DNA of 64,000 nucleotides, taken from assembly GCA_040756875.1 (NCBI GenBank), contig JBFLYH010000002.1, positions 32,001 through 96,000 of the forward strand, given 5' to 3'. Of this stretch, positions 8,564 to 40,400 are shown in pieces. Below the pieces are notes generated by a model. It saw only the letters and a list, made by a program, of their open reading frames with translations, was not told where the DNA came from and ran no database searches. The translations under genes and the position numbers were made by a program. The stretch comes from a candidate division FCPU426 bacterium. GTDB lineage: Bacteria > Oederibacteriota > JAAXVQ01 > JAUVAV01. How positions within the stretch are numbered: position 1 is the stretch's first letter; the number at the start of each line of letters is the position of its first letter.

Positions 8564-8601
8564 GTCCGCTCGCAAATAACGCTCCTTGGCCAGGCTCGGC
8601 T

Positions 8602-13437: not shown

Positions 13438-13445
13438 GACCAGGC

Positions 13446-15503: not shown

Positions 15504-16174
15504 GCTTTACGCTCCTTAAAGCAGGCCAGGTCGACGGTCCGGCTGACGATCTCGCGAACCTGGCGCTGTTGTTCGTGGATACTCAAGGTGGCATCCACGG
15601 TCGTGAAGTGGTAGGCGGTCGCCAGGCGGTCGTATTGGGCCATGACGCGCTCCTGGAAAAGCCGGAAGCTTTCCTGTATGTCACTCGACAACCCCAGGTC
15701 CATGCCCGCTTCGAAATATTTCAGGCTCGGCCGGCCGGTCAAAATGCGGCCGAGGGCGGTTTGCAGGGGCAGGCGAAAATAGAAAGTCAGGTCCGGCCGC
15801 CGTGCGAAACCATAGAGGTTTTCCAGCCAGGAATCGGCGCACCCCCGCACGGCATCGCGCGCGAAGGCGGTGAACATGTAGCGGTCGCACAGCACCAGGT
15901 AGCCGCCCTTGAGCATGGTCAGAATCTGGCGCTCATAGCGGTCTGCGAAATCGGTGGCGTGGATCAGGCTGAACGTGGCGGGGGTGAGCAGCTGCTGTTT
16001 TTTGCCTTTGCGCGTGGCTTCCCGCACCAGTTGGCTGGAGTTCCATTCGGTAAAGAACACTTTGCAGCCAAGGCCGCTCAGCCAGCGGTATAAAAGATAG
16101 ACCTGGGTCGATTTTCCCGAACCATCCAGACCCTCGACCGCGATCAGCTTGCCGGTAATCGGCGATTCATCCAT
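15500..16174 (-). CDS. Thymidylate-kinase-like protein
   Basis: IAVEGLDGSGKSTQ, LCDRY, PDLTFY, YFEAGMD; start ATG 16174 with GGGAGG RBS. Confidence 0.88.
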   Translation of the reverse strand: MDESPITGKLIAVEGLDGSGKSTQVYLLYRWLSGLGCKVFFTEWNSSQLVREATRKGKKQQLLTPATFSLIHATDFADRYERQILTMLKGGYLVLCDRYMFTAFARDAVRGCADSWLENLYGFARRPDLTFYFRLPLQTALGRILTGRPSLKYFEAGMDLGLSSDIQESFRLFQERVMAQYDRLATAYHFTTVDATLSIHEQQRQVREIVSRTVDLACFKERKA

Positions 16175-20438: not shown

Positions 20439-23400
20439 TTAAGCGGCTTGGCCGGCCAGGCGGAAATACCGGCGCCGCAGAGGTTCCAAAGGGTTGAGAT
20501 CAAGCTGTATTGGCAGGGCCCGGACCCGGTCAAGCAACGCTCCCAGCAAGCCGGACTGCCCGGGTTTGAGCAGCAGTTCCGGCACCAAAAGAGCTAACCC
20601 GGTGCTTTCGGCAATCTCGGGTTCCCACTTTCCGATCGGTGTGCCGCGAAGCAACGGCATTTGTTCGACCAGGCGGCTGAAGGTGCGCAAGGCTTCCTCC
20701 TGCTCCCTGGGTTGTTTCAGGTTCGTAACCACCCTGACCAAGCTGCGAACCAGGGTTTGAAGCTGGATTTCATTCTGCTGAAGGGTGAAACGCAGGTACG
20801 CCTGGCCGAGGGGGCTGTCGGGTTTTTGCAGGAGTGCGGCCAGCGGGGAATGGTCGCCGCGTAAAACAGCGGCCAGGTAGGCTTCCGGAGATCGCGCCAG
20901 CCACATCTGGTCCAACGCCCACTGCCAGGACTTCGGCCAGCGCCGGCTGAGGCGGAATACGGCGGCGGAAAACAGCCAGCGGCCGCCTGCGGGCGCGCCG
21001 ACCCGCTCCGGTTTCCCCCCCTGATACGGCCTGCTCTGCGTTTCCTCGGGCACGCGCCCAATGGCCAGGTCTTCGGCGGCCACCTGCCTTGCGCTGCTGA
21101 CTTCCAGAACCTGGCGCACAGGCAGGAGCACGCCCGATTTTTCATGCCACTCCAGCCGGCCGGTGGCCACGCCCAGACAGATCCTGCCCAAGTCGCTGGC
21201 TAGGGGCAGGGTGTGCACGGCTTCGTCCTGCATCAGAAATCCGCTCTGCAACCACAGCGACTGGCCGAGTGCGGCATCCAAACGCGCCAAGCTGCCGGGA
21301 GCCGCGGTTTCGGCGCCGGCCAACGCCCGCTCGATTTCCTGCCAGCGTTTACACAGCGCCCGCACCGGCCGCGTGGCACGCAGTGCGCTCAGTGCCTGCA
21401 GGCGCGCCTGGGACTGCATCCGCAGGCGGCGGATGGTTTCCGGCATCGCATACACGTACACTTCGCGCACAAACTCTTCTTCGGTTCGGGTCACCTGCGC
21501 CCGCACGGCCGGCGCCTGGGCCTGGATCAGGGCGGCCATGAGATCGCGGCGCACCCAGCCTTGCTCGGTTTGCGGCAGCTGGTCGGCTTCTCGAATGGCG
21601 GTGGCCACCAAGGCCGTGCGGACGTCCCACGGCTCGTCCGCATTCCCCAGTACGCCGGCCAGCGTGGTGAAGTTCGGCTCGGCGCCCGCCTCCACCTGCC
21701 GCGCCAACGCTTCCACCCAGGCATCGCTTCCCTGCCCGGCGGACGTTGGCCCGGCCAGGAGGACCCTGCTTTCGGATTCCAATTGATCTACGAGTCGCAG
21801 CAGGTCGAAAACGCTCAGGCACACCCGCTTGCCGGCCGCGCGCCAAGCCAGGGAGGCCGGTTCTCCGGCGTGCAGGTCGACCAGCAGGCGGGTCCGCGGC
21901 ACACCGGCTTGGGCCCAGGTCCAGTCCCCGGGTTCAAGCCTGGGCCACTCGCGGTCCTGCTGGTAATAATCGTGAGCATGATACTCCAGAATAAGCCCGA
22001 GCAAAAAACGTTTGGCCATAAACGCCAGCCTTCGCCAGCGACGATTGAGGCTGTCATCGTCGGCAGGCATGCCATTCAGCAGACTGCGCAGTAGCGCAGC
22101 GGGCACATACAGCGTGGGACGGCCGTTTTCACCCTGCTCGCGGTAGCGCCCAAAAAACGCCGGCAATCTGCGGCCTTCGGATTCGAGCGCCCGCACCTGG
22201 ATGGATTGCAGGCGCAGGCCTGTGTGCCGGGCGAACAAGCGCAAAGCCATCGGATCAGGCAGCTGATACTGTCTGAGAAGATCGGCCACTTCGGGCCGCC
22301 GTTCCGGCAGTTCTTCACCGTCGAAGCGCGGAACCGGGCGGCTGGCGATCCAGAGCCAGACGGCGCCCCGCCACAAGCGCAGGGGCAGCTGGAAGAAAAA
22401 GCCGGCCAGTTGCCAGGGTTGCTTCAGTCTGGCGGGCGCTTGGGCCTCGGGCAGGCGGTCGAACAACGTGGCGAGCATGAACCAGCGCCAGGCTCGCGCC
22501 AGCCGGCTGCGGGAGGGTGCAACCGGCTGGTTGGCGCCGGGGTCGTCCTGCGCTGCGTGCGCCTGCCAGGCCTGCAAGGCTTGGGCTTCAGCCTGCGCCT
22601 CCCGGGTATTGGCCGGGGGACGTTGGGCTGCGCTTTCCACAGGCGCCTGCTGTTCGGCCAAACCAGCGGCCAGCGGCCACCCGGCCGGACGGGTGGCCAG
22701 CAGGGCTTCGCGGTACAGACGCAAAGAAAGCGGCGCGCCGCCTTCCCGGCGCAACTGAATGTAAACCGCGGCCTGTTCGATCCGTTCGGCCGGATGCCGC
22801 ATGATCAGGGGATGCGCCTCCAAACCATAGCGCCGCAATATGCGAACCTTGGCGCGCGGGCTGTTGTCCGTCTGCAGCCTGGTTTTTTCCACCCCTGACC
22901 GGCCCTGCCAGGGCAGGGTCAGAAGCATGAACGTCACCTCCCACAGCCAGGCCATTCCGGCCCATGGCTGCCGCGGCTGCCAGGCTTCCAGCGGCGTGGC
23001 CGGCGGCCGGAAAAACAGCGGACGCACGGGAAACCACACACGCTGCCAGCGGGTCCGCGGCTGGACAATGCGCGGGCCTGCCTGGCCGGCGTGATAGCTT
23101 TCAATAATGTCTTCGACCTCTTCTTCCTCGGTCGCCGGCATGAGGCCGGTTTCAGCAGGCACCTGCCGGGTCAGGTTCAGGGCTTCGCGGTAGAGTTTGA
23201 CGGTTTCAAGCTCGCCCATCTTAACGCGCTGGTAAATATACTTGGCCGCGGTTTCGAGCTTGGCGCGGCTGGTGCGGAACAGAAAGGGATGGGGGATCAG
23301 CCCGTACTTCAGCAGCACCACGACTTTTTCGTTGACCTGGTCCCAGCGTCCGTTGAATTCGCGCACATAAGTTCCTGGGCGGATGGGAAAACGGACGCCG

Positions 23401-26400
23401 TAACGGCGTTCCAATACCTGCCGCAGGTATTCCGCCCGTTTTCCGGGATCCTGGGCCGCGCTGTGCAGTTCGAATTCCAGCGCCACGTCAGCCTCGCGCC
23501 GGTTGCCGGCCTCCAGTATCCGCTTGCCGATGAGGGCCAGGGTTTGGGGATCGGCCGCCGTGACTTCAGCCACCAGGTGTTGCACGCGTTCAAGCGGCAG
23601 ACCGGCCTGAATCAGCGCCTCGCGAAAGATCATAGCAGCCACGGTGCGGTTGCTGAGCAGGTTGAACATGCGGCGGCGGAAATAGATCTCCTGGTCCAGG
23701 GAAAACACCCCTCCCTCGAGCAGGCTGGACATCCAGGTGGGTTGGCTTTTCTTGGGAACCAGAATGACGCGGCTGGCTTGGCAGACTTTGCGCAGCCGCT
23801 CCCAATCCACGACTTCGTCCGGTTTAAGATAATGATCGAGGTTTTTAATGTACCGGTTGAGAGTTTCCTGCAGGACGTGCAGCCGGTCAGGCGCCGCCTC
23901 GGACACCTGGCTGACTTTATCCTGGTCTTTCAGCACGCTGGAAAAGCCGAGCAGCGAATACATGAAGCTGACGAAAATGACCAGCTCCTGCAGGTGCGAC
24001 CGTAAAAAAGACAGGGCAGCTTGCAATTCAATGACTCGGGTGGAAACGAACGCCGGCAGCAGACCCGGCCATATCGCGTGCACGCTGGACAAGGCAAAGG
24101 CCAGGGACATGGAAAACACCACCAATGCGGCGGGCAGCAGGCTGGCCAGAATAATGACCTTGACCTGCTGGCTGATTTTGGGGTTTTTCGCCATCTGCAG
24201 CCATTGTCCCAGCATAAAGGCCAGCAACACGGTTTGGCCGGCCAGCATGACCGGCAGGGGCAGCGAAAGATAGAAACTGAGTAATAGCATGCTGGACAAC
24301 ATAAATACAAACAAGATCTGGCGCAGGGGTTGGCCCCGGCCAAAGCTGTCGCGCACGCGCTGGCGGAAAGGTTTGGGGCCTTGGGTGCGGGCGGGCCGCT
24401 TGTTCAGCTGCAGTTCCTTGCGTTTAATGCGATGGAGCCATTCGAGTAAATGCAAAAAGAACTGGGCAAACGAAAGCACACCCACGACTTTTTTCAACAT
24501 GCGCAGAGAAATGGTGGTGCTGTTGCTGGCCAGCACGCTGCTGCCGAAGAAGAGCACGAAGAAAAAACTGGTGGGAAATTTACACACCTCAATCAGCACG
24601 ACCGCGCACACGATGCGCAGGGCCTTGGAAACGACGCCATCCAGCCATTCGGTCTTGTTTTTCAGTTTCAACAAACGCAGGCCGATGATCACCAGAAAGC
24701 CTCCGGCCAGGGCAAAGAGCATGACCGCGTTGAAGTTGACCGTGTAGCCCAGCACGGTGCTGTAGTCAAGCAGGCGCGCCAGGATCATCAGCGCGACAGC
24801 CAGCATGGCGGCCAGCGGGGTTTGCTGTTTGGTCAGGCGGTACTCCTTGAGATTCTTCACCAGGGCCGATTTTTGCGCTTTCCATTCCTCCCGCAAGCCG
24901 CCGACCACCTCGTACCACGACAGCAACCGGCGCTGGCGGAGCAGCGCGGTGGCGTAGTTGGAGACAAACGTGAACAGGCCCAGGGCCAGCAGTACGCCGG
25001 CCAAGGCGCCCAGGGTCCAAGCCCAGGTCGGCGGCGCGGGTGACAGGTGCAGCAGGATAGGAACCAGACCCACAGCGAGTTTGATGTCCCCCAACAGTTC
25101 GCCGTAGATGGGCCAGAGCGTAAACCGGCTCTGTCTGCGCTTGGCGATCTGGTCCCGCAGAAACTTCAAGGACGGTTCCTCGGGCGCCGGGCCGGCCCGG
25201 ATCGGCGCAGGCCGCCCATTTAAATAGGAAGCAATCAGCAGCAGGCCGGCCAAGCCGGCGCTGGTGCCCCAGGAAACCAGCGGCGAAATACCCAGACTGA
25301 GCGGCAAAGCGGGCTGGAGCACGCCCACGGCTATCACCGCGCCCGCGGCAACCAGGAACACGGCGCCGCGCAGCGGGCTGACCCGGCTGGTCAGTGTGGA
25401 CCAGTTGCCGCTTGCCGCGGCTGCAGCTTTGCCGGCAACAGTGCTTCCCCACAGATAGAGCCGGATTTGGCGATCATGGACCTGCGCCTGCCAGCGGGTC
25501 CAGGCCTGACCCATGCGTTCAGCCAGACGGAAGCGCTTTCCGGTTTCGGTCCCACGCTGGCGCCACCAAGACCAGGCGAGCCATGCGGCCACAGCTGCCA
25601 GCAGCACCCAAATGCCAATGCCGGCAGCTGGCTGAAGCGCGGGATCGGAAAACCAGGTTTGCCAACCCTCGGTCATTGCCCCTGGCTGGGCGGCAGCTGC
25701 TGCGCCTGGGTCCACTGTCGGCGCAAGGATCGAAGGATCTGGCGTTTGGGGCGCTACCGGCTCTGCTGCCGTTTGCGCAATTGGTTCCGGCGCTATTTCC
25801 ACCAGCTGCCCGTGAATCGGCGTTGTCCCGGTTTGCTGGGGATCGAAATCCACCTTCAGCGTAGTGCCGTAGGCGCTGGGTTCCCCAGCCGGGTTGAACG
25901 AGTGATAGCGGATTTTATTCGGATCCGCCAGTTGGTTGGCCGCCGCAAGTTTGGCAACACCTTCGGGCGCCGGCAAGTTGGGATAAAGGTGTTTGGCCAG
26001 CGCCCACAGGGTGTCGCCCTTGCCTACGTAATACAGCCCTTCGGCGGCGTGTGCAATGCCCTGCAAAGCCAGCGATCCCAGCGACCCGGCCAGCAGAACG
26101 GGCAGAACCCGCAATACGATTCGAACGCCCCGGCGCAGCCAGCGGCGCCACGCCGGATGGTTAGCCGCCGCTTCCGCGGCCGGCGCCGGACCCCGCCGGA
26201 GTCTGGAAGCCAGTCCGTCAAGCGCGCCCAAGGAGATAAAATACGCGTGCAGACTGATATCGCGCGCCTTGGACCGCACAAGGTCCGCGCGTTTGGCCGC
26301 GCCCTGCCACAGCGGCAGGAGGGGCAGCCGGTTAAAATTGACAAAAGGGATCATGCCGGCCAGCAATGCAAAACTCGGCACTGCGCCCATGCCCACGGGG

Positions 26401-28274
26401 ATAAACCCCTGCAGCAACGGCACCGGCAGCGCGACGCGGCCGAACAGGCCGGGCTGGGTTTCCTGCAGCCGGGCTTCGACCGTGCGTCGTTGGTCCAGCG
26501 GATGGAAACTGACCTCGAAGTCATCCAAGACCAGGGGTTCGGCCAGAGCTTGGGGCAGCTTGACCGCTCGGCGCAGAGGTTGCAGCACCGCGATAAATTG
26601 ACGGCCGGCCAAGGGCAGCACCAACGTTTGGCCGATGGTGCGGGCTTGCTTCATATCGAATCGGATTAGCCCGCTGTCTGCGGCGTACCGGCGCAATTCG
26701 GCGTCCAGAGCAGCCGCCATTTTCCGGACCGAGCCGGTCTTGGCCCACAAACGCTGTACCGAGCCTAATTTAAGGACCATTTCCAGCATCTGGTAGGCTT
26801 GGCGCGTTTCCTCCGGCAGGTCGTTTTCCTGCAGAATGGCTTCCGGCTCGGCATGCTGCGCAAAAAAAGGCGGCAGGGCCAACTGCATTTGGTTGCGGGC
26901 CACCAACCGCTCCCAGGGCGTCTGGCGACGGCGCAGCAGGCTGAGGTAGGGGTTGTACACCACCGCTTCGCTCATGCGCGGCCGCACGGAGATATAACCA
27001 GCGCCCGCGTCTTCCAGCGCTTCACAAATCAGCGCGGTATGATAGCCGCCGCTGATGATCACCGCCAACGGGGACCGGTGGCGTTCGAGCGCTTCCAAGG
27101 CGCGGCGCACAAAGGTGCGGCTCCGCTGATCGGCCTTCCGGTAGAATTCCAGGGCTTCCAGACGCTTTGCATCCAGCGCCGGCAGGTCGCCGGTGGGTTC
27201 CAATTGCAAGCCCGAGGCCAGGGGTTGCAAAAAATCCAAAAACCGTCCGATTGCCAACTGCTCCGGATGGGCGCGCACTTCGTTTAATTCTTCGGGCGTC
27301 AAAGCGATGTTCAGCAACCCTTCGAGCAAATCGAGGCGGTGGAGCATGCCGTCAAGTTCGGCTTGCAAAGGCTGGGTATAGAGCTCGCGGCGTAAAACCA
27401 GGTCTATGACCTGCATTTCCCGGTACAGGTTTTCGGCTTCCACCTCCGGAGGAAATTCGGCTTGTGAAGATCGTGTGTAGCAAAGCAGGTTGGGATACCC
27501 GGCCAAATCCAGCGACCCTTGTGCAAACCCCAGCAGCTGGCGGCAATACTGTTTGAGCGAAATCTGCCCGTTTTGCGTCGCGGTTTTCAAATCGTCCAGT
27601 TTCAGCAGCGGCAGCGAGTACAAGCGCGGCTTGAGGCTTTCCAGGGCTTGACGCAGATCGCACAAGAGCCCCTCGCTTTCGTCGGTTAAAAAACGGAGCG
27701 CCAGCTCGTGCGATGCGCGGTATTCGCCGTCTTCTTCCATGCCCTCCAGAATCACTTGCCCGGGATGCTGGGCCGCGAAATATTCCGCGCCGGACAGGCG
27801 TCCGCTTCTCAGCAGCAGCTCGGCGGCCAGCTGCCTGACATGCGGATCCGGAAAACTGGAGAGCTTGGTCACATTGACCGGCAAATGAGCGCCTTCGATC
27901 AGCACCAGGCTTACGGCCCGAGTGCGCGCCAAGTGCGACAGCAGCTCGGCGATGTTTTTCTGGATGGGATAGTGACAGTGAAGGTCCTGAATATGAATGA
28001 TACGCACGGGCAGACGGCGGTCGGAAACGTGGGTGGCCTGGGCCAGCTCCCGTGGAATGTCAAACCCACCGGGCTTGAAGGCGGCAGCGGCTGAAGCCGG
28101 GGCGTAGGTATCAGGCGCAAACGCCCACCCAAACAACGGATTGATCAGCGCCAGGTTCAGTATAAAGACTAAAACCCGGATCGCGCCCGCATGCCTGGGC
28201 TCGCGCCAGACGCGCAGCCACTGTAATCGCGTTGACAAGGATTTGTCGCATCCCGGCCGCTGAAAGATATTCAT
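20439..28274 (-). CDS. Giant (2,611 aa) multi-pass membrane protein: signal-like N-terminus, putative ChaN/TraB/Tiki-like domain, LysM, TM bundle, family C-terminal domain
   Basis: Uninterrupted ORF with AAGGGG RBS; hydrophobic N-terminus; QDLH...IEG...R...GGYH; YYVGKGDTLWALAK LysM; C-terminus homologous to that of the upstream giant ORF. Confidence 0.88.
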   Translation of the reverse strand: MNIFQRPGCDKSLSTRLQWLRVWREPRHAGAIRVLVFILNLALINPLFGWAFAPDTYAPASAAAAFKPGGFDIPRELAQATHVSDRRLPVRIIHIQDLHCHYPIQKNIAELLSHLARTRAVSLVLIEGAHLPVNVTKLSSFPDPHVRQLAAELLLRSGRLSGAEYFAAQHPGQVILEGMEEDGEYRASHELALRFLTDESEGLLCDLRQALESLKPRLYSLPLLKLDDLKTATQNGQISLKQYCRQLLGFAQGSLDLAGYPNLLCYTRSSQAEFPPEVEAENLYREMQVIDLVLRRELYTQPLQAELDGMLHRLDLLEGLLNIALTPEELNEVRAHPEQLAIGRFLDFLQPLASGLQLEPTGDLPALDAKRLEALEFYRKADQRSRTFVRRALEALERHRSPLAVIISGGYHTALICEALEDAGAGYISVRPRMSEAVVYNPYLSLLRRRQTPWERLVARNQMQLALPPFFAQHAEPEAILQENDLPEETRQAYQMLEMVLKLGSVQRLWAKTGSVRKMAAALDAELRRYAADSGLIRFDMKQARTIGQTLVLPLAGRQFIAVLQPLRRAVKLPQALAEPLVLDDFEVSFHPLDQRRTVEARLQETQPGLFGRVALPVPLLQGFIPVGMGAVPSFALLAGMIPFVNFNRLPLLPLWQGAAKRADLVRSKARDISLHAYFISLGALDGLASRLRRGPAPAAEAAANHPAWRRWLRRGVRIVLRVLPVLLAGSLGSLALQGIAHAAEGLYYVGKGDTLWALAKHLYPNLPAPEGVAKLAAANQLADPNKIRYHSFNPAGEPSAYGTTLKVDFDPQQTGTTPIHGQLVEIAPEPIAQTAAEPVAPQTPDPSILAPTVDPGAAAAAQPGAMTEGWQTWFSDPALQPAAGIGIWVLLAAVAAWLAWSWWRQRGTETGKRFRLAERMGQAWTRWQAQVHDRQIRLYLWGSTVAGKAAAAASGNWSTLTSRVSPLRGAVFLVAAGAVIAVGVLQPALPLSLGISPLVSWGTSAGLAGLLLIASYLNGRPAPIRAGPAPEEPSLKFLRDQIAKRRQSRFTLWPIYGELLGDIKLAVGLVPILLHLSPAPPTWAWTLGALAGVLLALGLFTFVSNYATALLRQRRLLSWYEVVGGLREEWKAQKSALVKNLKEYRLTKQQTPLAAMLAVALMILARLLDYSTVLGYTVNFNAVMLFALAGGFLVIIGLRLLKLKNKTEWLDGVVSKALRIVCAVVLIEVCKFPTSFFFVLFFGSSVLASNSTTISLRMLKKVVGVLSFAQFFLHLLEWLHRIKRKELQLNKRPARTQGPKPFRQRVRDSFGRGQPLRQILFVFMLSSMLLLSFYLSLPLPVMLAGQTVLLAFMLGQWLQMAKNPKISQQVKVIILASLLPAALVVFSMSLAFALSSVHAIWPGLLPAFVSTRVIELQAALSFLRSHLQELVIFVSFMYSLLGFSSVLKDQDKVSQVSEAAPDRLHVLQETLNRYIKNLDHYLKPDEVVDWERLRKVCQASRVILVPKKSQPTWMSSLLEGGVFSLDQEIYFRRRMFNLLSNRTVAAMIFREALIQAGLPLERVQHLVAEVTAADPQTLALIGKRILEAGNRREADVALEFELHSAAQDPGKRAEYLRQVLERRYGVRFPIRPGTYVREFNGRWDQVNEKVVVLLKYGLIPHPFLFRTSRAKLETAAKYIYQRVKMGELETVKLYREALNLTRQVPAETGLMPATEEEEVEDIIESYHAGQAGPRIVQPRTRWQRVWFPVRPLFFRPPATPLEAWQPRQPWAGMAWLWEVTFMLLTLPWQGRSGVEKTRLQTDNSPRAKVRILRRYGLEAHPLIMRHPAERIEQAAVYIQLRREGGAPLSLRLYREALLATRPAGWPLAAGLAEQQAPVESAAQRPPANTREAQAEAQALQAWQAHAAQDDPGANQPVAPSRSRLARAWRWFMLATLFDRLPEAQAPARLKQPWQLAGFFFQLPLRLWRGAVWLWIASRPVPRFDGEELPERRPEVADLLRQYQLPDPMALRLFARHTGLRLQSIQVRALESEGRRLPAFFGRYREQGENGRPTLYVPAALLRSLLNGMPADDDSLNRRWRRLAFMAKRFLLGLILEYHAHDYYQQDREWPRLEPGDWTWAQAGVPRTRLLVDLHAGEPASLAWRAAGKRVCLSVFDLLRLVDQLESESRVLLAGPTSAGQGSDAWVEALARQVEAGAEPNFTTLAGVLGNADEPWDVRTALVATAIREADQLPQTEQGWVRRDLMAALIQAQAPAVRAQVTRTEEEFVREVYVYAMPETIRRLRMQSQARLQALSALRATRPVRALCKRWQEIERALAGAETAAPGSLARLDAALGQSLWLQSGFLMQDEAVHTLPLASDLGRICLGVATGRLEWHEKSGVLLPVRQVLEVSSARQVAAEDLAIGRVPEETQSRPYQGGKPERVGAPAGGRWLFSAAVFRLSRRWPKSWQWALDQMWLARSPEAYLAAVLRGDHSPLAALLQKPDSPLGQAYLRFTLQQNEIQLQTLVRSLVRVVTNLKQPREQEEALRTFSRLVEQMPLLRGTPIGKWEPEIAESTGLALLVPELLLKPGQSGLLGALLDRVRALPIQLDLNPLEPLRRRYFRLAGQAA
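25905..26036 (-). other. LysM domain within the 2,611-aa protein
   Basis: YYVGKGDTLWALAKHLY...KLAAANQLADPNKI. Confidence 0.85.
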
Positions 28275-28452
28275 GAACGCTCATTCCCCTTATGGCTTGA
28301 CTGCCGGGCCAAGCATAGCCAAAAAGGGTTAATGGCGCGTGCGGTTTCTATTGATTCTCGATTAGAAGTGGGTTAAAGGAAAGCGGCCACAAACCAACCG
28401 GGAGGCAACACTGCCGCAGCCGGCGCTTGGGTGCAAAAAATCACTCAGGCAG

Positions 28453-31400
28453 CTAGGCCGCGCTGCCGGGCGTGCGGCGCAGGCGGCGCAGCTCGGGACG
28501 GAATTTCCGTTCGTCCAGGGTGACCGGCGCCAGCCGCAGTCTTTCCTGCAAAGCCAGCCACAGGGACCGGTACCCGGGCGCCAGGAACAGTCCGGGCACG
28601 AGCACAGGCCGTCCATCCTGCCGGAGGCCGATGCGCTCGCCCGCCAGCTCGGGCATGCGGGCCAGGCGCTCCAGCGTGTTCAGTCCGGCGTCCAGCGCTT
28701 CCGCCGGCTGCGCTTGCAGCAGTTCCACGAGCGTTTCCAACAGGCGGTATTGGGTTTCCGGCGTCGGCGCCAGCGCAAAGAACCGATAGGCCCGGCCGGC
28801 GTCCGCCTCCCGGTCCCGCAGGGCCTGCGCCAGGGGCGAAGTGTCCTCGGCCAGCAGTTCGTTCAAATACGCTTCGGGCTGCGATCGGCGCAGGCTCCGG
28901 TGAATGCGAAGGTTCAGACCCGCAGGCAGACGAACGGCCAGTTTCAGGAGGTTGCGCAGCACCGGCAGATCGGCGGCTGCCGCGTCGCCGCGCCCAAAAC
29001 CACGGAGCAGCGCCGCCAGCAACAAGTCCATTCTGCCCCGTTCCTGCTGGTCCGCGCCGGCCTGGCTGACCACCACGTCCAGCCAGTATTGATAAGCGCG
29101 GTAGCGTCCGAGTTGCCAGGCATCCCGCATGGTGTTCACTTCCTCCGGCGGCCCCTGCATGAGGTTGCGCAGCAGGAATTCCGGAGCCGCGACCACGGAC
29201 CGGTTCCCCCGCTCGACCAGGCCGCCCAGCCAGCGCCGGCTTACAGGCAAACTGCGGCGGTTCGCGGCGTCCAGCGCGCGCACGGGCAAAGGCTGCAGCC
29301 GCAGACGCTGCGCTCCGGCCAGGCGCAGGGTCGTGTCGTCAGGCAGTCCGTGGCGCCGCAGCAGGGCCTGCACGGCGGGGTGCGCGGCATCCACTTCCAA
29401 ACCGGATTCTGCCCGCGTCCCGGCGATCAGCCAGGCCAAGCCCCGGGCCAGACCCATCCCTGCGGCCAGCAGGCTGACCGCGGCAGCCACGGGCGTCAAG
29501 CGCGCCGGGAACATCAGGCGGCGGAAGAACGAGACCAGCAGGCGGCTCCCGGCCGAAAGGCGCGGGGTCAGCGGCTGGTTGGGCGCTTCCACCCAGGCGC
29601 GTTCAGCCTGCACGGAGGCAATGGCCTCGGGAACCGGACCGGGCAATTCCCTGCCCAGCCCCAGCGGGAAGGCGTTCGGCGACACGTCGTCCTCCTGGCC
29701 TGCGGCGCGCCTGGCGGCGGAGACGGGCTGGATTGTCCCCGTGCGGCCGAACCAGCGCGATCCGTACTCAGCCAGGGACGCCCGCCAGTGGCTGCCGGTG
29801 TAACCTTCCCATATTTCGTGCCGCAGCAGCAGCGCGAGCTCAGGCAGGCTGAGGGCATTGGCTTGGGGATGCACGCGGACCACCAGGTCCCCGCCCACGC
29901 GCTGGACCTGGCCGAGAAGCAGGCGCTGCCAAAAGCGGGGCCTGGCGTCCGGCAAGACTTCGAACCGGATGCGTTCGGGCGCAAAACCCGCGGGCAGACC
30001 GCCCTGGCGCTCCAGATAGGCCAGCAGCGATTCCCGCCGGGCCGCGAGCGCTTCGTTGGTCAGCGGAGGCAGCTTTGAACCAAGCACGCGCCGCCGCATC
30101 AGAAGCCGCGGCAATTGTACGCCGACCAATGCCAGTCCGGAGACCGCGCCGGCCAGGCTCAGCGTGGTCAGGGCCGGGTCTTGCAGCAACGCGAAACCGA
30201 AGAACAGGCCGGCCAGGGCGGCGCCCAGGGCCTGGAGCAGGACCGCGCCGGGCGACACGGCCAGCGCGCCGGGGCGTTCGGGCTGCAGGATTTCCCGGGT
30301 GGAGAACATGTCAAACAAAGCCTGGTTGCCGAGCGGGGCGCTGACCCGGCTGGCAATGCGCAGGGTGTTTACCCAGCGGAAATCATACCGGGGCAGGCCG
30401 TCATTGGCCAGGGTCAGCAGTTCGTGCTCCAAGGCGGTCAACTGCGGCCGGCTGGCGCGCCGCATCTGGGCCGCGTTCACGAAATCCGCCACGGAAATGG
30501 CCCGGCTCACGCCGGACAGGGCGGTGCGGCGCAACCCGCGGGGATACCCGCGGCCATTGAGCCATTCGTGGTGATTGGTGCTTTGCAGGATCTCCGGCTT
30601 GTAGCCGAACGCCGAGAGCAGCATTTCGCCCAGACGCGCATGGCTGCGGAGCAGCGACTTTTCTTCCGGACTCAGGGGATCCAGGCGCAGGAGCAAGGCC
30701 GGCGGCAGGAGCAGCTTGCCCGCGTCGTGCAGCCAGCCGCCGCGGCGGAACAACTCGACCGCCGCCGGGCCGTACGCCGGGGCCCGGTTGACCAGCCCGT
30801 ACACCGCCGCCATTTCCGCGGCCAGGTTCCCCACTTCCCACGAATGGCTGAAGGTGAAACCCTGATCATGCCGGTACAGCAGCGTGAGCAGCACCCAGTC
30901 CCAGAACGCAGGCCGCAGCCCCGCGGGCATGGCTTTCAAATCCTCGCTGTCCACTTTCCGGACCAGTTCCCGCATTTCAACGACCATCCGCCGCACCCGA
31001 TTCTGCAAGCGGCCGGACCAGTTGGCTTCCATTTCCTGCGGCGCGCGGATATCGTCGAGCGAGGCCTGGTGCTTCACCAAAATCTTTTCCACGTCCGCGA
31101 TGATCTCCATGCGCCTGGGCAGGGAGACCAGGCGGCTGGCGGACACCAGTTGCTGGTAGGAGGTGCTGTCTTCGCCGGCGCGCGCGGCCAAGGGGCGCCA
31201 GGTGCGGATCCAGGCGGCCAGGGCCAGACGGATGCCCTGGAACGGACGGGCCAGGCGGTTGCGCACCTCGGAGGCCATCCAGGCTTCAATGACCGCTTCG
31301 GGATTCGAGTCCGCGTTGGGATCCACGAAGTACCGGTAGCCGTGGGGCTGGTCCTTGGCGTCGCCCAGGAACAAGCCGTCCTCGGGAACCAGCTGGTTTT

Positions 31401-34400
31401 TATTGTCCGCGATCAGGGGCTGCAGGTCGTCCTCGATGACCTCGCCGGTAAACACGCCGCGGGTGTTGAAAACCAGGCGGTTGCCCCTGACCTCGGATAC
31501 CACGACGCCGCGCGTCTCCAGGGTCCGGTTGATTTCTCCCCGGTTGAAGAACATCTGCAGCGATTGCTCGCTGCTACGGCTGCGCACGGCCACCTGGATG
31601 TCCTTGGCGCCGGTCGCGACCCGCAGCCGGTCCGTCAACTCCAGGAAACGCCCGTTAAGCTGCCAGGATGCGGCCTGGCGCCGCAGATGTCCGAGCGTCA
31701 GGCGGTCTTTGAGCACCGCCAGATAATTGCGGTACGCAGGGGCGGAAACCTCGGCGTCGAACCGCTGCCGGGCCTGGTTGTACGCCGTGGTGAACGTTTC
31801 GCGTTCCTCCGGATTGCGGATGGACACGGCGGCAATGTCGCGCAGGCTGAAGCCTTGCTCGGACCGGGGCAAGGTGATGGTTTCGTTGAAATCCGCGTAA
31901 ATCGTGATCGGCTGGCCGGCGTGGAGCAGCCGGAAAGCCAGCTTGAGCGCCCCGCGCCGCACCCGCCTTCCCCACTCACGCCAGTCCAGGGCCCGGTTGC
32001 CTTCCAGATTGACGAGCAGGTGGGCTGCCGACACCAGCGGCACGAACAGGCCGGCGAACAGCAGCCCGCTGGGATTCAAGCCCAGTTGCAAAGCGGCCAG
32101 CAGCACTCCGGTGAGCCCGGTGATGCGCACCAAGGGCGCGCTAAACGCCAGCCCCAACGCCGCGCGCCAGGCCAGCGGCCGGCCGGCGGCGTCCTTCGCT
32201 CCCACGGCGTGCAGAAGATGCCATGCCAGTTGGAACAGACCGAACAGCGCCCAGAAGGGCGGCCCCATGGCCAGGGGCAGGCCGAACGCCCACACCAGCA
32301 GCAGATGCGACGCCAGGGTCAGGGCGCCCACAAACCAGCCGGATTCGACGAGGGCGGGCAGGAGCGCCTGGCCGAGGAACCGCCCCCAGCGGGGCTGGCC
32401 GCGCTGGGCCGCCCGCTGCTCCATGCGGTCGTACCACCCTTGCAGCCACGGCCAGCGTCCGCCGGCCGCCGGCGCCGGGGCGCGGACCGCGGCTTGCTCG
32501 CTGTTCAGATCCTGCGCCACCTGCTGCAACAGTTGCTGCAAGGCAAACCGTTCGTCCAGCTTGTCGAGCAATTCCTGGGGCAGCACCGCCTGGCCCGAGG
32601 CTTCCAGCAATGCCTGGTGTTGAAGCTCCAATCCGTTCTGGTCCAGGCTCATCAGCCTCAGGTAATCCGCGGCCAAACGGGCGCTGTTGTCCTCCAGATA
32701 CTGTTTCTGCCTGAGCGTGTCCCAGTGTTCGATGCGTTGTTCTTCCCAGGCGCGCGTCCGGATATAGGCCCACAAGCCCGAATCCTCCTGGACCTGGTTC
32801 AGGTTGGCGTAAACCGCCGAGAGCTGCGGCGAGATCCCGGCACCCAGATCCTGCCAGCGGGCGACGCTGAGTTTGGCGGCCTGGGCCAGTTCGGCGTCCA
32901 GCTGTTTGAGCCGCCCCAGCAGTTCATTGACCCGGATCTCCTCCTCCGTGACCGGCTGGTCGCTCCGGATGCGCGCCGGCTCGCTGGGCGGACGCGGCAG
33001 GATCTGGGGCGTCAAGCCGCGCCGGTCCCGGTTCAGCAGTTGGGTGCGCGACAACAACACGACATCCTTCGGCTCCTCGGCGTCCGTGGCATGCTCAGGG
33101 CCCAGGATGGCCGGCAGCACCTCGGCCAGGCGGCCTTTCTGCCGGCTGCGCAGCGCGAGGGTCTCATCGCCCACCTGCAGGGTCTCGGGCAGCTGGACGT
33201 TGTAGCCGGCCATGCGCGCGTTTTCCACGGCCAGGGCCAGGAGGCGGCGGTGAGTGTAGTCGATGTCCGGATGGTACCTGTTGGCCGAATCCAGCCACCA
33301 CCAGAAATCGGAATTCACGGCCTGCAACAGGTAATACCAGGCCAGCTGGGTGTAGTCCTGGGGATAGATCACGGGCTGGTCGCGGTACCGGGTGTCCACG
33401 CCGGCCGCGCCGAACGCTTTGATCACCGCGTCGGTCAGGGCCCAGGCTTTGCGCTGCTCGGGCGTGTTGCCCGCCCAGCGGGAGAAGGACCCCAGCCGGC
33501 TGCTGGCTCCGGTGCGGTTGACGGCCGCGCGCACCTGGCGGCCCTGCTGTTCCAGCAGCCGCGTGCGCAGGTGCTGCTGCGCCGGTAGGCTCATCTCCAT
33601 GTCCTGGAAATCTTCGCCGCGATAGTCGGGGCTGGGATTGGTGCGGTTGAGCAGCGTGAAGACCTGCTTCCAGAAATAGAGCCAGCCGCCTTCCTGCCCC
33701 ACCTGACGGAAGAAGGGTGCGGAGCGCTCGCCGTCGATCATAAAGGAGATTTCGAACTGGCTGGGCAGGCCCAGTTGCCGGGCTTTGTTCTCGTATTCGG
33801 GAGCGTGCTGGCGCGGTCCCCAGCCGGGCCGGGGACGCAGCAAATGATCGTAGGCCAGAATCAACGCCGCGGACAGGCCCGCGGATTTGCCGCGGGCGTC
33901 TCCCAGTTCGTCCCTGGCCACATCTTTGGCGGATTGGGGGTAAAGCGTGATTTTGTGTTGAATGCCTTCCGCTTCCCACTGGTAATAAAACCCGGCCTGG
34001 TCGTCCAAGGGCGCAATCTGCCCCTGGTGCATCTTCAACAGCTGCTGCAGAAACGTCTCGGTTACGAAGACATTCCGGATCCCGTGGGCATGCAGACGCC
34101 GCAGGGTGTCCTCGTCCAGGCCGTCCTCGCCGGGCCAGAGCGAATAGAACGGCATGTCGAAAAAGTCTTCCATCAAGGCGGTCATGTAATCCAGGGCGAA
34201 CTCCGCCATTTCCGGATGCTTGAAATCCACTGCATACTGATCGCTGCCGCCGGCGGCCTGCAGAGCACTATTCTGGTCCGTCACCACGGGATAGATGAGA
34301 TGCGGCGCCGCGGCGGCCAGTTCCACCTGTCCGGTCGCGGACAACGGCAGGAGCCCCAGGGCTTCGCGCCGGGCGTCTTCGCGCCGCACGGCGAGCCCGA

Positions 34401-37400
34401 AGGAAATCTGATCGCGGTCCGCGGCCTCCACCACCGTGTTCACGGCCACCAGCCGCGCGGCCGGCGCGATCATGGACAGCACGCGGGTCTGGTCCCGGGC
34501 AAACGCCAGGCAGACCGCCTCGTCGCGCGCCAAGGCGGGCAAATCGGTCTGGGAGGTGTACCAGTACGAAAAATTCACCGTATGGGTGACCGGTTCGCCG
34601 GCGCGGTTGAGGCCCAGCAGGACCGTGCCAGCCGGACGCAGGCTGGGATCGATCCAGGCCGCGGCCTGGCCCAACAACAGCCCCTTGACCTGGGCCTTGA
34701 ACGCCAGCCCCTGCTCTTCACCGGCCAGACGCTGCTTCACATATTCCCGGAGTATGCCCGGGGCGTCGAAATAACCGGCCTGGATGAAGCGTTCAACCCG
34801 TTCCGCGGGATTCTCCACCGCCAGCAGGGCCGCCATCCCCTCCGGCATTCCGGTTTTGTATCCCTCGGCTAAAAATTGCAGGTAATCGAGCAAAAGGGTT
34901 TCGCGCAGGCGGCGGTAGGCCGGGACTTCCTGCACCAAGTTCCGTTCAACAGCGCGGTCCATTTTCAAGGCCAGGAACAGGTCGTCAGCCGTCCAGTCGG
35001 AGAACGGCTTGACGGTGAGCCGGTAGAGCGGATCCACCGCCGTAGCGCCCTCCTTGCCGCTTTCGTCCAGGAATTGCCCGATGATCGTGGCGCGGGCAGT
35101 CTGCGCCTGTTCCTCGGTCCAGCCTTCGGCCGCGCGGCGCTCGTTTACGTCCGCCAGGGGCTCCCACAACCAGGTTTCCGCGGCCCGCACCTGGTTCCGC
35201 AGCTGGTCCACTAGTGAGGCCGAAAGGTTCACGGTCAGTTTCGCCCCGCGCAGGGCCGGATCATACATCGCGGCGAAAGTGGGATAGTAGGTCCGGAGGC
35301 CGTGGAAACGCGCCCAGGCGGATTCCGACTGGTCGCTGCCCATGGGCTGGTGGTCGTTGAAAACGATCTGTATTTTCTTGGGGCGGTTGAGCAGTTCCAG
35401 GCTTTGCTGCAACTGGCGCTCCGTGGGCGAAATGAGGGCGGCCTCGATGCGCTGGGCCAGATAATGCCGTTTGACCGGCGGCACGGCCGGAAGTTCGGGC
35501 CGCAGCCGGCTGCGGTATTGCTGCAGGAAGAAGCGCGTGGTATGCCCGATCAAGGCCAGGCCCGAAGCCAGGATCGCGGTGCCGATCAGGCGGCCCATGG
35601 TCACCACCGGCCCGCCGAAGAGCCACAAGGCGGCCGCGCCCAGCACGACGGCCAGGGGCAGCGGGCTGGCCAGAAGATTGAACGCGCGGCCGCGGAGCAG
35701 GCGCTGGATCGAAGGATACTGCAGGTACCCGGCTGATTCGAGGAACGAAAACACCGCCTGGGCCGTGGCCCGCCAGTATCCCTGCCCCGCGGCCTCGTAG
35801 ATGAGGTACCGCAGGATGGCCAGCTGGAAGGAACGGTCCAGGGCGTCGAAGTGCTTGTGCACGTAGATGATCGGCTGCTGGGCCACGGTCTCGCTGCTGC
35901 CCAGGCGCAGGCCCTGGGTGAAGCGGGAGGAGAGCGATTGTTCGGGCAGGACGCGGAAGATCGGGCGGCGGTAGCCTTCCGGCAGCCGTCCGTTGCGCTC
36001 GACTTCCTCGAGCACGTCCTGCAGGCGCCGGTAGACCGAGGAATTGGTCAGCGCCGGAGTGGCGGGCCTGGCCAGCCGCGCATAATAATATAGGAAGCGC
36101 GGGCCGTAGCTGGCCAGCAGCGTGAGCAAGGTGAGGGCCAGCCAGATGCCAAAGAAGGCCCGGGTGCCGGGGCCGAAGAACCACGCCAGGCTGGCGCCGA
36201 AGGCCAGCGTGGCCAGGACCGCGCCCAGGACCCGCAGGGGCGGGATGCCGTAGTAGCCCAGAGTCGCCCGTTCCAGCAGCGGCCGCGTCAGTGGCGTGGC
36301 GCGGCGGTATTCCTGCTGGCTGCCCAAAAGCCCGGCGGCGAAACCCATGGCCAGGTACTGCAGGCGGATCATCTCGGCCCGGTCGCCCTTGATGCGGGCG
36401 GTTTCGGTCTGCTCGGCCAGGCCGTTCAAATACCCCAGCACCTGCCGGTTGGCCGTGCCGCCCGTGGGATCGGCCAGCAGGCTGGCGAGATACCCCAGCA
36501 GGTATCCTCCCCGGTGCCGTTGATTGTAATTGTCGTCCCCCTGGGCGTTGAACAGCATGACCTGGTCGACCAGCGGGCTCTTCTCCTCCAGCAGGCGCTC
36601 GAACCCATCCACCAGGCCGTTCAGGTTGGCGGCCGGACTGCGCCCCACTTCCTCGCGCCGGTCCACGTTGTAGAACGACCACGCAAAGGGCTCGAAGCGG
36701 CCCTGCACGCTGAGCCGCTCCAATTGCGCCGGACCCAGTTGCAGGGCCAGCGCCTGGGCCTGGCCGCGGCCTTCGGCCAGGTGGAGTTCGCGCTCCTGGT
36801 CCTGGCGGTCCAGATAATGCAAGTACTCCACCATCTCCCGGGCCACGCGTTGGGTGCTGATTGCCTCGGACTGGCCCAGGGAGGCGCGGAGCAGGCGCGC
36901 CTGCCCGCCCGGGCGCCGGAGTTCGGCGTTGGCCTGCTGGAAGGCCCGCATCAGGGCTTGCGGCGTGAAACTGCGGCGGTTGCCGTCGTCCGGGTCCGTG
37001 GTGTCGTACGGCAGCAGGAAGGAGTTGAACTGGTCCTGCGAAAACCGGGTGCCCGCGGGGAACTGCCCGGGATAGTCGGCCTCCTGGCCGCGGTACACGC
37101 AAAACTCGGGGATCGCCCCGTCCGGCGAGGCGATGACCACCGTGCCGTTGGCCAGGTCTTTCATGAAGCCCGTGGCCGAGGCTTCGCGGCCCTCGTTCGA
37201 CCCCATGACCGTGCCGTCCATGCCCGCGGCCAGGGTGCGCATGTCCATGGTGTTGAAATTGGGGAAGAACAGGACGCGGTCCCTGAGCGCCGGATGGGCG
37301 TTGATCAGGTTGAGGAAAGCCTGCACCAGTTTCTGGCTGCCCTGGTCGTCTTCGTGCACCCGGCCGCCGAAAACCATGACCATGTCCTCCTTCAGGAACT

Positions 37401-40400
37401 GCTCGCGCAAGGAGTCGTCGGCCAGCAGCTGGTAGAGCTTTTTCAGCTGTTTGTAGTCCACCACGCGGCGGGTCCAGTGGAAGAAGCGCATGCCCGCCAC
37501 CCGCTCCTTCCAGCCCGCGTCCAGGCCGCAGTTCTCGACCAGCAGGTCCTGCATGGCTGACCGGGCCTTGGCTTTCTCGGCCACCAGCTGCTCGTCGCTC
37601 TGTCGCGCCCAACCGCGGAACCCCGGCCACTGCCAGAACTTCAGGTTGACGCCGTTGGTGATGGAGACCACTTTGTCCCGCACCCGGCGGTAGGTGGGCA
37701 TGGTGCGCATGGTCTGGGCGTGGAGTTTGGCCACGCCGTACAGGCCGTGCGCCAGGGCCGCGATCATGCCGGTGATATGGATTGTGTCCCCTTCCAGGGC
37801 CAGGCGCAGCAGATCCGGGTTGAGCCGGTACCGTTCCAGGAAGCCCTTGCTCTCCTTCATGTGCGCGTATTCCAGGGGCGTATGGTCGTTGAACACGAAT
37901 TTGGCCCGGCCCAGAGTCTCCTGGAATTCGTCCTGCACCAGGGCCGGCAGGGCGAACGTGCCGGCGCTCATTTCGGAGACGATGACCGTGTCCGGGTTGA
38001 TGCCGAGTTTGGCCAAAAGCGCCAGGTAGCCCCGGCCGATCAGGTAGCTTTGCTCCATCTCGATCCGCTTCTTGCGCTCCCATTCCGGGTCTTTCTGGAA
38101 ACGCTCGGCGCCGTGCTTGTCGGCCGAGCCCGCGTAAGCCACGTCGAAGACATTGGGTTCGGTCTCGGCCGGATCGAAATCATCCAGGTAGTAGGTGACG
38201 CTGTCCGTATCCTGGTCGTAATCCTCCCAGACCCGGACTTTGCGCAGGCGCTGGTCGTAAAGCGGCACTTCGAGCACCAGCTGCTGGCCCGGATGCTCGG
38301 GGTCCGGGGCCGGCCGCAGCGCGGAACGGAGCACATCGCCGGTCGTGACCTGCTGCAGGCTGAATTCCGGGTAGGTCACGCCCGCTTCGCCCAGGGTTTT
38401 CACCTGCTGCATCCAGACTTTTTGGTAGAGAGGCGCCACGCTGACCACGCGCCGGATGCCCGGGTCCACGGCCAGGTCCTCCAGGCGGTCGCGCAGGAGC
38501 GGCCCGATGCCGCCCACGGACATGGACATGCACATGGTCTGCAGCACCTTCCGGACGCTGCCGGCTTGCCGGATGGCTTCGTCCAGGCGCTGCCGCCAGG
38601 GATGCCGCGGGTTCTCCAGGGCCTGTCGCGCGGCCTGTTCCATGCGCAGCGTCAGCCGGCTTTCCACGGTCAGTTCCACCACGGTCTTGGCGTGCGGAGC
38701 CGTGGTCGCCAGGCGGGCCAGATGTTCGTAATGGACCTCGCGCGGCCAGTCGAACGCCCGCAGCCTGGCCACGGCCGCTTCGTGGCCTTCGCGCAGGCTG
38801 AGGAGTTCGTGCAGCAGCAGGTAGCGCAAGCCGTCCGGAAAGGCGTTGCCCAGGCGCTCGCGGAAGAAGCGCAGGCGTTCGCCGCTGATGAAGAGGTATT
38901 GGATTTCCTGGCCCTCGAACACCGGGAACATCGTGCCGCGGTTGATCAGTTCGAACAGCTCCCGGCCGGGCCCGGACAGCCGGTCCACGAGTTTGGGGTC
39001 CGCTTCGCGCACCTGCAGCCAGCCCTTGACTTCCCTGGCTTCGTAGCCGCGCAGCAGTTCCGCGTACTGCGGATCCGCGAACAACCCGTCGATGGCATCG
39101 GCCAGCTCGTGCTCCCACTGCCGCTGTTCCACGGCCAGCCGCCGGTTGGCCGCCTGGCGGCCCAGGCCCAGCCGGTTCAGCAGGCCGTCGAACACTTCAG
39201 CTTCGGTAAACAGCTGGCCGGCCGCCACGGCGGCGGCCAGGGGTCCGGTTTTTTCCAGCTGTCCGGCCAGCTGCAGGACCTGGCCCCCGAAAGTGCTGTT
39301 GAGGAACGCGTAGGCTTCGGTCTCCCGCGCCTGCGGCTGGACCACAAACGCGAATCCGGCTTTGGGCCCGCCCACCAGGTTCACCACGGCGTGCGTCCCC
39401 ACGATCACGGCCAGCGCCAGGCCCGCGAACAGGTAGCCTGTGGGATTGAGCAGCAATTGCAGCGTGGCCAAGGCCAGCCCGGTCAGGCTCGTGATCCGCA
39501 GCAGCGGCAGCGAGAACAGCGGCCGCCAGTGCTGCTGAACGAAAGCGCGGACAGCGATTCCGCCGCGAGCCTGCCAGGGCATGTGCCCCAGGTGCCAGGC
39601 CACCTGCAGCACGCCGAAGGTCGCCCAGAACGGCGGACCCAGGGCGAACGGCAGGCCGAACGCCAGGCTGAGCAGGAACGCGCCGGCCAAACTCAGCGCG
39701 CCCACGAACAGGCCGGATTCAACGGCCGCCGGCACCAGGGCTTGGCCCGCCACCCACCCCAGGTGTTTGCCCAGCACGCGGCTTGCCCCGGCTTCCACGC
39801 GGTCGTACCAACCCGCCAGCCACGGCCAGCGGCCGCGGGTGGCCTTTTTGTTGAGATAATAAGTCAGCAGCATCCGCTGGGTCTGTTCTTCCGCCTCGTT
39901 GATGCTCAAGGCGCCGGCCGGCACCCGGGTGACCTCGCCGCCGGGCGCGAGCATGAAAGAATCCCGGGGCACGAGCCGACCCTGCGTCTTTTGGTACATG
40001 GTCAGAAACATCCGCTGGTCTTCCTCATCGCCAGTCAGCAGGTAGCCGCCCTCGCGGACGTCCTGTCCCATTTGCAGGATCCGCTGCTCGCGCTGATCCT
40101 TGTACATGTACAGCACGTTGAAGCAGATCTTCAGGTCCGCCGGCACGTTCTGGCCGAAGGAGGCCTGCACGACCTCAAAGCCGTTGGCCGCGGCAAAAGC
40201 GGCAAAGGGCTGTTCGACCACCCGCAGGTTCGCGGACAAGGTCCCGGCCTGATGGCGTTGGAACCACTCCGACATTTCCTGCAGCCGGCTTTCGTCGTAA
40301 ACCGTCGTGCCGCCGGACTGGAAGCCGGCCAGGAACCTGCCAGCCTGGTCGTAATAGGCGAACTCGCCGGTCTGGGCGTCCGTGACGGACCAGGCCGGGA

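Follow-up and report, generated by a model that had tools for sequence, protein, structure and literature searches.

Two adjoining long open reading frames (ORFs) of very different length, both on the minus strand of the DNA analysed here, close with the same kind of C-terminus, and the question raised by this locus is what such a common ending is and what it could be for. The window (the whole stretch of 64,000 nucleotides, from contig JBFLYH010000002.1 of a candidate division FCPU426 bacterium) holds the ORF of P0001, a protein of 2,611 amino acids (aa), and next to it a giant ORF whose N-terminal ~600 aa lie outside the window (Table 1). The genome to which the window belongs, here called G000, is assembled in 7 contigs (C1 to C7; 3.22 Mb) and contains 13 ORFs of >4,000 aa; P-numbers designate library proteins. 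An earlier examination of the letters (the original prediction) had proposed that both proteins end in one unnamed domain, that this domain acts as a signal in export, anchoring or assembly, and that it defines a family with variable middles, as in polymorphic effector systems.

The strings that had suggested a common domain are present in the translations of both ORFs where they had been reported. P0001 has PEVADLLRQYQLPD from residue 1993 (about position 22298 of the window) and PEAYLAAVLRGDHSPLAALL from residue 2463 (about position 20888), its chain ending in ...RRRYFRLAGQAA before the stop codon, and the giant ORF has PAVQALLRRHGLPD and PEAYLNELLAEDTSPLAQAL within its last 310 residues and the chain end ...RRLRRTPGSAA. 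The common domain proved to be real, as BLASTP of P0001 against a translated fragment of the giant ORF, with composition adjustment, gave two collinear matches, which we call block A (residues 1887-2108 of P0001 against 1604-1805 of the fragment; 33% identity over 226 columns, E 2e-12) and block B (2463-2611 against 1859-1999; 38% identity over 150 columns, E 6e-13), all remaining matches having E values of at least 0.6. Block B reaches the last residue in both proteins (...GQAA in P0001 and ...GSAA in the giant ORF). This similarity of the two C-termini is confirmed as lying far above chance, and the profile searches agree with it. Since the spacing from A to B is 354 residues in P0001 and 53 in the giant ORF, the insert of P0001 amounts to about 300 aa, and not to the ~350 extra residues that had been estimated.

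The unit formed by the two blocks and their surroundings (the C-module) is a real unnamed domain module, specific to one lineage. A profile built from five sequences (A1) matched 65 proteins at E ≤0.001 among 1,835,955,588 representatives, at least one of them (P0006) from G000. The module was found in 15 of 99 genomes of the phylum, namely G000, 10 of 10 genomes of its family and 4 of 4 of the sister family, and in 0 of 84 elsewhere; it is present in 15 of 15 genomes of one order, and in 12 of 60 when those at least 90% complete are counted. Each genome has 3-11 C-module matches, in open frames of up to 13,678 aa, and the family as a whole ranges from 1,344 to 13,678 aa with at least 7 to at least 13 copies per genome in that one order. 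As shown by BLAST and iterated searches with hidden Markov models (HMMs), block B in G000 closes the four longest ORFs (12,551, 12,450, 10,037 and 8,807 aa) and an ORF of 2,613 aa, and it is also found on two contig-cut ORFs (C4 and C6) and on a 67-aa fragment that starts contig C7. The family ORFs of G000 total ~68,400 aa, which is ~6% of the genome. The profile did not fall on any known enzyme domain at arbitrary positions; its matches were limited to the extreme C-terminus of large proteins with differing middles, as the original prediction had anticipated. The relatives are named 'hypothetical protein' in the databases, with one named after an internal enzyme domain, and the main texts searched and the available passages on giant proteins do not describe the family. 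The DNA itself was traced to one groundwater metagenome only, which may be its source, and to no RNA data set.

Contigs C4 to C7 (5.8-20 kb) consist almost entirely of pieces of giant genes, and the assembly breaks at the conserved ends of the family: C4 and C6 end at the same residue within the C-module, C6 starts within the N-terminal domain described below, and C7 carries the C-terminal 67 aa of one member together with the N-terminal 1,136 aa of a second one. Three further giants of G000 that end in Ala-Ala (6,963, 6,158 and 2,248 aa) matched only the last 27-77 columns of the block-B profile (hhalign P 0.008-0.02), too weakly for block B to be called in them; the 6,158- and 2,248-aa proteins carry the N-terminal domain of the family. 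The 6,963-aa protein, which ends in ...TTGSAA and whose tail weakly resembles the last ~50 profile columns (P 0.018), belongs to a second group of giant ORFs (G000:C2:1078294-1134622 and contig C5; 6,963, at least 4,835 and at least 4,394 aa) that are without that domain and mutually 26-50% identical.

The most constant property of the module is its position at the very end of the chain. We collected 80 distinct tails reaching the end of the block-B profile (library matches, fetched loci and G000), and in 80 of 80 the match ends no more than 9 residues from the protein end, in 64 of them at the very end. The seven matches that fall short of the profile end are either cut by a contig border or stop 11-24 residues before the protein end, and none is internal. 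Ala-Ala closes 65 of the 80 tails; the last residue is Ala in 67, Val in 8, Ser in 4 and Ile in 1, the penultimate one is Ala in 73 and Ala or Ser in 77, and the last 20 residues contain a mean of 5.0 Lys plus Arg. Genome-wide, 34 of 2,210 crude ORFs of G000 end in Ala-Ala versus 8 of the 24 that are at least 2,000 aa long. Furthermore, both the Ala codons and the stop codons vary among copies, so the constraint acts on the protein.

Along the chain the module begins with a conserved NxP motif, which is a candidate cleavage point, and an amphipathic helix; a hydrophobic helix follows, then an alpha/beta block A (~130 aa), in some proteins an insert (~320 aa), a helical block B (~160 aa) and an Arg-rich tail. 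It exists in two forms, a long one (A, insert and B; ~700 aa) and a short one (A and B; ~350-400 aa), which were aligned separately (A2, 38 short forms; A3, 20 long forms); the insert is restricted to long-form modules, and the giant ORF is without it. AlphaFold2 gave models of the short form (m94778f077101; mean predicted local distance difference test score (pLDDT) 83.1, predicted template modelling score (pTM) 0.59, block B at pLDDT 90-98) and of the long form (m92b6caab9b0b; mean pLDDT 81.1, pTM 0.76), both of which are confident as predictions. Helices predominate in these models; block B consists of a helical repeat and two or three short strands, and in the giant ORF it likewise combines a helical repeat and a small beta element. 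As to its kinship, the domain is indeed unnamed: Pfam gave no match in the module at E ≤0.01 in searches with whole proteins and no family in more than 1 of 20 modules at E ≤1, NCBIfam gave none at E ≤1, PDB sequence profiles nothing below E 0.2, Foldseek of the models against the PDB nothing at E ≤0.001, and the ESM Atlas no usable match. A zincin-like fold (the catalytic domain of M1 aminopeptidases) was weighed as a candidate for block A. The structural matches of the module lie under the level that the tool calls meaningful, and neither HEXXH nor any other catalytic motif is conserved in block A in the A2 and A3 alignments. A motif of ~60 aa occurs twice in P0001, at 23168-23348 and 22695-22892 on the minus strand (..LLKYGLIPHP..AAKYI..LYREAL.. 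and ..ILRRYGLEAHP..AAVYI..LYREAL..); a stretch like it precedes block B in P0047, and the start of block A in the giant ORF is similar.

The opposite end of these proteins is conserved as well. An N-terminal domain of ~580 aa (the N-domain) is 30-38% identical between P0001 and 9 other ORFs of G000 by BLASTP, and its HMM found 11 ORFs or fragments in this genome. It occurs in 15 of the 99 genomes, identical to those with the C-module, with 7 to at least 13 scored copies per genome, and it opens 21 of 30 library matches of at least 1,300 aa; the other nine, which are without it at their N-terminus, may be truncated gene calls. The N-domain starts with a basic stretch and a hydrophobic helix followed by a conserved WAFE motif (in P0001, a basic N-tail, a hydrophobic helix ending GWAFA, and then IHIQDLHC, EG and GGYHT). 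An alignment of 29 sequences has invariant D-L-H-C, E-G, two more Glu, one Arg and G-G-x-H, residues that look like an active site. Neither Pfam nor PDB sequence searches gave a match for the N-domain. Its assignment to the Tiki/TraB/ChaN superfamily, an idea suggested by its motifs, was not supported, as Pfam ChaN (PF04187) was obtained with only 1 of 9 members (E 0.3) and hhalign of the 29-sequence alignment against 8 TraB domains of the same phylum gave a probability of 0.14 (P 0.41).

What lies between these two constant ends differs from protein to protein, as was foreseen for a family with variable middles. The paralogs of G000 resemble each other only at the two ends and in scattered repeated cassettes, and a crude hydropathy scan gives 12-41 hydrophobic segments per family protein. 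The giant ORF has 41 such segments (Kyte-Doolittle) and Pfam matches (E ≤0.01) to NTP_transferase, ManC beta-helix, DnaJ, CheR, Phosphorylase and HD/HD_5; among 16 long relatives searched with Pfam, 10 have no domain at all and the others have GNAT, aldose epimerase, HD, GT1/TreT or PRTase-CE. The middles are membrane-spanning stretches with housekeeping-type enzyme domains, not toxins. A pair of proteins from the same genus has ends that are 89% (N) and 82% (C) identical and lengths of 4,478 and 1,344 aa, and the modules of C4 and C6 are 79% identical with only patches of 28-42% identity upstream, indicating that the middles change fast and the ends are preserved. Across 15 proteins, N-end distances correlate with C-end distances (r 0.85; 0 of 5,000 permutations as high), which shows co-inheritance and not co-evolution because related proteins are not independent. 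As judged from these sequences, the two ends of each protein have diverged together and have not been shuffled. Members are often in tandem, like the two genes of the window, the 6,158- and 2,248-aa ORFs on contig C3 of G000 (in this order), three modules at G022:C19 and four N-domains at G028:C34.

Some of the repeated cassettes can be delimited in the giant ORF. Its residues ~6430-8650 (39856-46518, minus strand) comprise at least 4 cassettes of ~250 aa that all match residues 4498-4747 of the 12,551-aa paralog with 29-35% identity, and its residues 9037-9822 (~790 aa) are 50% identical to part of the 8,807-aa paralog.

On which side of the membrane the module lies is suggested by four small proteins that consist of an N-terminal signal peptide or signal anchor and block B only (G000 C1:187454-188146, P0051, P0067 and P0048), and it is because of them that we place the module outside the cytoplasmic membrane. 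The charges around the hydrophobic helix, net +1.5 upstream and ~0 downstream in 25 sequences, and net positive upstream and net neutral to negative downstream in the giant ORF, go in the same direction. LysM is a peptidoglycan-binding type of domain and is expected outside; the predicted order in P0001 is N-domain outside, helix, very basic loop, helix and LysM outside. The better reading of these data would be that the hydrophobic helix spans the cytoplasmic membrane with blocks A and B outside, the membrane segments being those of the crude hydropathy scan. The stand-alone gene of G000 (C1:187454-188146, plus strand) encodes ~230 aa ending in ...WFDSAV and has a GGGGAG ribosome-binding site.

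The closest architectural parallel is found in the giant proteins of Omnitrophota, described as multi-enzyme proteins with a signal peptide and many transmembrane segments, of which SecA-DEAD, C39 and dockerin domains are typical (preprints of West-Roberts et al. 2023, 10.1101/2023.11.21.568195, and Nielsen & Lui 2026, 10.64898/2026.06.07.730766). Judging by the available passages of these reports, both groups include proteins longer than 10,000 aa, encoded by small genomes of uncultured bacteria from groundwater, and in both an N-terminal signal or anchor is combined with numerous hydrophobic helices and with dispersed domains of sugar and nucleotide metabolism and of regulatory enzymes. With its 12,450 aa, 41 crude-scan segments and seven Pfam families of different kinds, the giant ORF falls into the same architectural class, which is not a homologous family. 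However, SecA-DEAD, C39 and dockerin were not found here (Pfam, E ≤0.01), and no family with a shared N-domain and a strictly terminal C-module is described in those passages. Moreover, the Omnitrophota giants lack the C-module, as its profile matches only 65 proteins world-wide.

Putting these data together, we tentatively favour, without claiming that it is probable, that the C-module serves docking or recognition at the chain end, its free Ala-Ala carboxy-terminus being what is read. We prefer this because an exact position at the chain end combined with small uncharged last residues is the signature of a peptide recognised by its free carboxylate. The N-domain and the C-module are the constant parts that frame these polytopic membrane proteins, and the folded part of the module would present a basic tail with a free Ala-Ala carboxy-terminus. 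The reader could be a partner that binds carboxylates, as PDZ domains and tail-specific proteases do, or a different part of the family itself, and through its binding the completed end of every giant would be marked or held in place. Tail reading is feasible in G000, which encodes one S41 tail-specific-type peptidase and whose own tmRNA tag likewise closes with Ala-Ala. Such an ending is like ssrA-type tags and PDZ ligands in having a free C-terminus of small uncharged residues, mostly Ala-Ala, the tag of this organism itself ending in LAA; unlike ssrA tags, it is encoded in the gene, follows an Arg-rich stretch and sits on a conserved folded domain, and its recognition is putative. In E. coli, Tsp/Prc reads ssrA-type ends outside the membrane, and ClpX does so inside it.

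Several observations weigh against this docking or recognition role. No partner was identified, and the only S41 tail-specific-type peptidase gene of G000 adjoins no giant gene. A folded module of 350-700 aa exceeds what a tail signal needs, and it may therefore have an activity of its own. The first seed of block B contained only sequences ending in Ala-Ala, which may slightly favour such matches, although later rounds admitted all. The stand-alone block-B gene of G000 sits among unrelated metabolic genes. The outside location is inferred from the four stand-alone proteins, from a charge bias that is modest and from a LysM of borderline score; the hydrophobic helix is itself borderline for a membrane span (mean best hydropathy 1.58), often with an internal Arg or Lys, and the crude count of hydrophobic segments in P0001 leaves the side of the module undecided. 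Structure prediction of a complex between the N-domain (A5 residues 88-615) and the short-form module (A2 76-396), with scores of 0.01 and 0.02 against a mark of 0.32, speaks neither way.

The alternative that survives best, unlikely as we consider it, is that the ends have simply been kept by descent from an ancestor of ~1,300 aa made of N-domain and C-module, into which cassettes were inserted and duplicated. The module would then do structural or enzymatic work independently outside the membrane, and Ala-Ala would be a structural detail. It is difficult to see how a structural detail could hold a domain at the chain end in all 80 tails, with only Ala, Val, Ser or Ile as the last residue, when the rest of block B has drifted to ~25% identity; and an enzymatic job finds no HEXXH-like motif conserved in block A and no structural match at a meaningful level.

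The Ala-Ala ends, with small residues in the other tails, could also be a built-in degradation tag of the ssrA kind, by which a protease reading Ala-Ala (S41 outside, or ClpXP or FtsH if the tail is cytoplasmic) would control turnover or trim these proteins. The tails do have the free C-terminus of small uncharged residues that ssrA-like tags and tail-specific proteases call for, the tmRNA (transfer-messenger RNA) gene of G000 (C1:1505058-1505409, minus strand) encodes the likewise Ala-Ala-ended tag AEPEFALAA, and the S41 peptidase gene mentioned above is present. However, a constitutive tag on the costliest proteins of the cell is hard to rationalise unless it is masked, and it would leave both the folded module and the secreted stand-alone block B unexplained. 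We regard this possibility as rather improbable.

Very improbable, in our view, is an uncleaved C-terminal secretion signal, type I-like or of a new kind, that would export the whole protein as in giant RTX adhesins. LapA-type adhesins of this class are secreted by type I systems; their N-terminal retention module is conserved, and a signal lies at the C-terminus. The family described here is like them in having conserved N- and C-terminal parts and a variable, expandable middle, and like C-terminal sorting domains (type IX C-terminal domains (CTDs), LPXTG, PEP-CTERM, GlyGly-CTERM) in that its module is obligately C-terminal, occurs on many different large proteins of one genome and is limited to a lineage. 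Unlike the adhesins, its members have many membrane segments (12-41 predicted) and cytoplasm-type enzymes in the middle, and neither HemolysinCabind nor any other RTX or Ca-binding repeat family was found by Pfam in the 4 plus 16 proteins searched; in addition, the module contains a hydrophobic helix. Type IX CTDs are beta-sandwiches of 80-100 aa, unlike a module of 350-700 aa that is mostly helical, and no Pfam or NCBIfam model of the Por_Secre_tail type matched it. Signals for sortase, exosortase or rhombosortase consist of a short motif at the extreme C-terminus that is followed by a hydrophobic helix and by basic residues, whereas the tail of the C-module is Arg-rich and hydrophilic to its last residue and the sole hydrophobic helix lies at least 320 aa upstream. 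Furthermore, the secreted giants of G000 seem to end differently and to take another route, because several of its ORFs of 2,100-3,200 aa (e.g. C1:1403915-1413469) have tails of the ...GIYLVRVVV..K type, which are putative type IX secretion CTDs. For the signal role in export, anchoring or assembly that was first proposed, neither a partner nor machinery nor processing was found, and the proposal went further than the data.

The weakest reading, a polymorphic effector or toxin family, which the original prediction had invoked by analogy, hardly survives: such systems have a constant trafficking N-terminus, a variable C-terminal toxin and a downstream immunity gene, and the many paralogs per genome, the tandem arrays and the combination of constant and variable parts do recall them, but here the N-domain is as constant as the C-module, the C-terminus is the most strictly positioned constant part and the variation is internal, paralogs show no shuffling of their ends, no toxin or immunity family was found by Pfam in the same 4 plus 16 proteins, and the genes downstream are another family member and a GT4 glycosyltransferase.

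The remaining surroundings of the two genes are of a different nature. Downstream of the family genes and their neighbouring GT4 glycosyltransferase lie genes for a Ppx/GppA phosphatase, two thymidylate-kinase-like proteins, a CHAD protein and a radical-SAM protein, and farther downstream the cell-division and murein (dcw) cluster mraW-ftsI-murE-murF-mraY-murD. The run at 12151-17735 (minus strand) from Ppx/GppA to radical-SAM, in which the thymidylate-kinase-like genes are tandem paralogs, is situated between the family genes and the dcw cluster and looks like a polyphosphate- or nucleotide-related group.

Table 1. The two family ORFs and the parts of their C-terminal modules (positions in the window, unless a contig is named)
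Feature	Position	Strand	Remarks
Giant ORF	28453..63999, runs past window end	-	12,450 aa stop-to-stop in genome; short-form C-module
N-terminal family domain of giant ORF	G000:C2:95835-97682, past window end		HMM
Short-form C-module, giant ORF, 396 aa	28456..29643	-	stop TAG 28453-28455
Hydrophobic helix before block A, module residues 51-74	29422..29493	-	model helix H51-74; best 19-residue hydropathy 1.66
Block A, giant ORF, module residues ~80-215	28999..29406	-	alpha/beta unit, starts LLRRHGLPD; pLDDT ~83-94
Block B and tail, giant ORF, module residues ~222-396	28456..28980	-	HMM independent E 1.4e-36; pLDDT 90-98; end RRLRRTPGSAA
P0001, 2,611-aa family member	20439..28274	-	N-domain, borderline LysM, polytopic membrane region, long-form C-module
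N-terminal family domain of P0001, residues 1-620	26415..28274	-	BLASTP and HMM
LysM, borderline, P0001	25908-26033	-	Pfam 20.7 bits versus cut-off 20.9; directly after predicted membrane helix
Long-form C-module, P0001, 725 aa	20442..22616	-	stop TAA 20439-20441
Block A, P0001, module residues ~105-222	21951..22304	-	BLASTP, model
A-B insert, P0001, ~320 aa	20982..21950	-	helical bundles and long beta-hairpin sheet
Block B and tail, P0001, end RRRYFRLAGQAA	20442..20981	-	HMM independent E 2.9e-49, model

Finally, returning to the docking or recognition role that we prefer, a bolder form of it, which we consider doubtful and put forward as speculation, is that the two ends jointly serve as a completion check for giant proteins. 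Both ends would lie outside the membrane, and only a ribosome that had passed all of the 1,300-13,700 codons would make the tail. Full translation would thus yield the module and its Ala-Ala tail, to be read by the enzyme-like N-domain of the family or by a shared periplasmic reader that would license the stability or assembly of full-length chains, truncated products being degraded; the secreted stand-alone block B could act as a competitor or regulator. If this were true, cells would possess a novel form of quality control by which very long genes become workable. Giant bacterial genes are turning up in many uncultured lineages, and the family described in this work provides a handle on the targeting, assembly and checking of their products, with its constant front, its constant and strictly terminal Ala-Ala end and a middle that varies ten-fold in length, even where the ends are almost identical. 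Two new domain families, the N-domain and the C-module, can be defined from it, and the end module may help to explain how proteins longer than 10,000 residues are handled in the cell.

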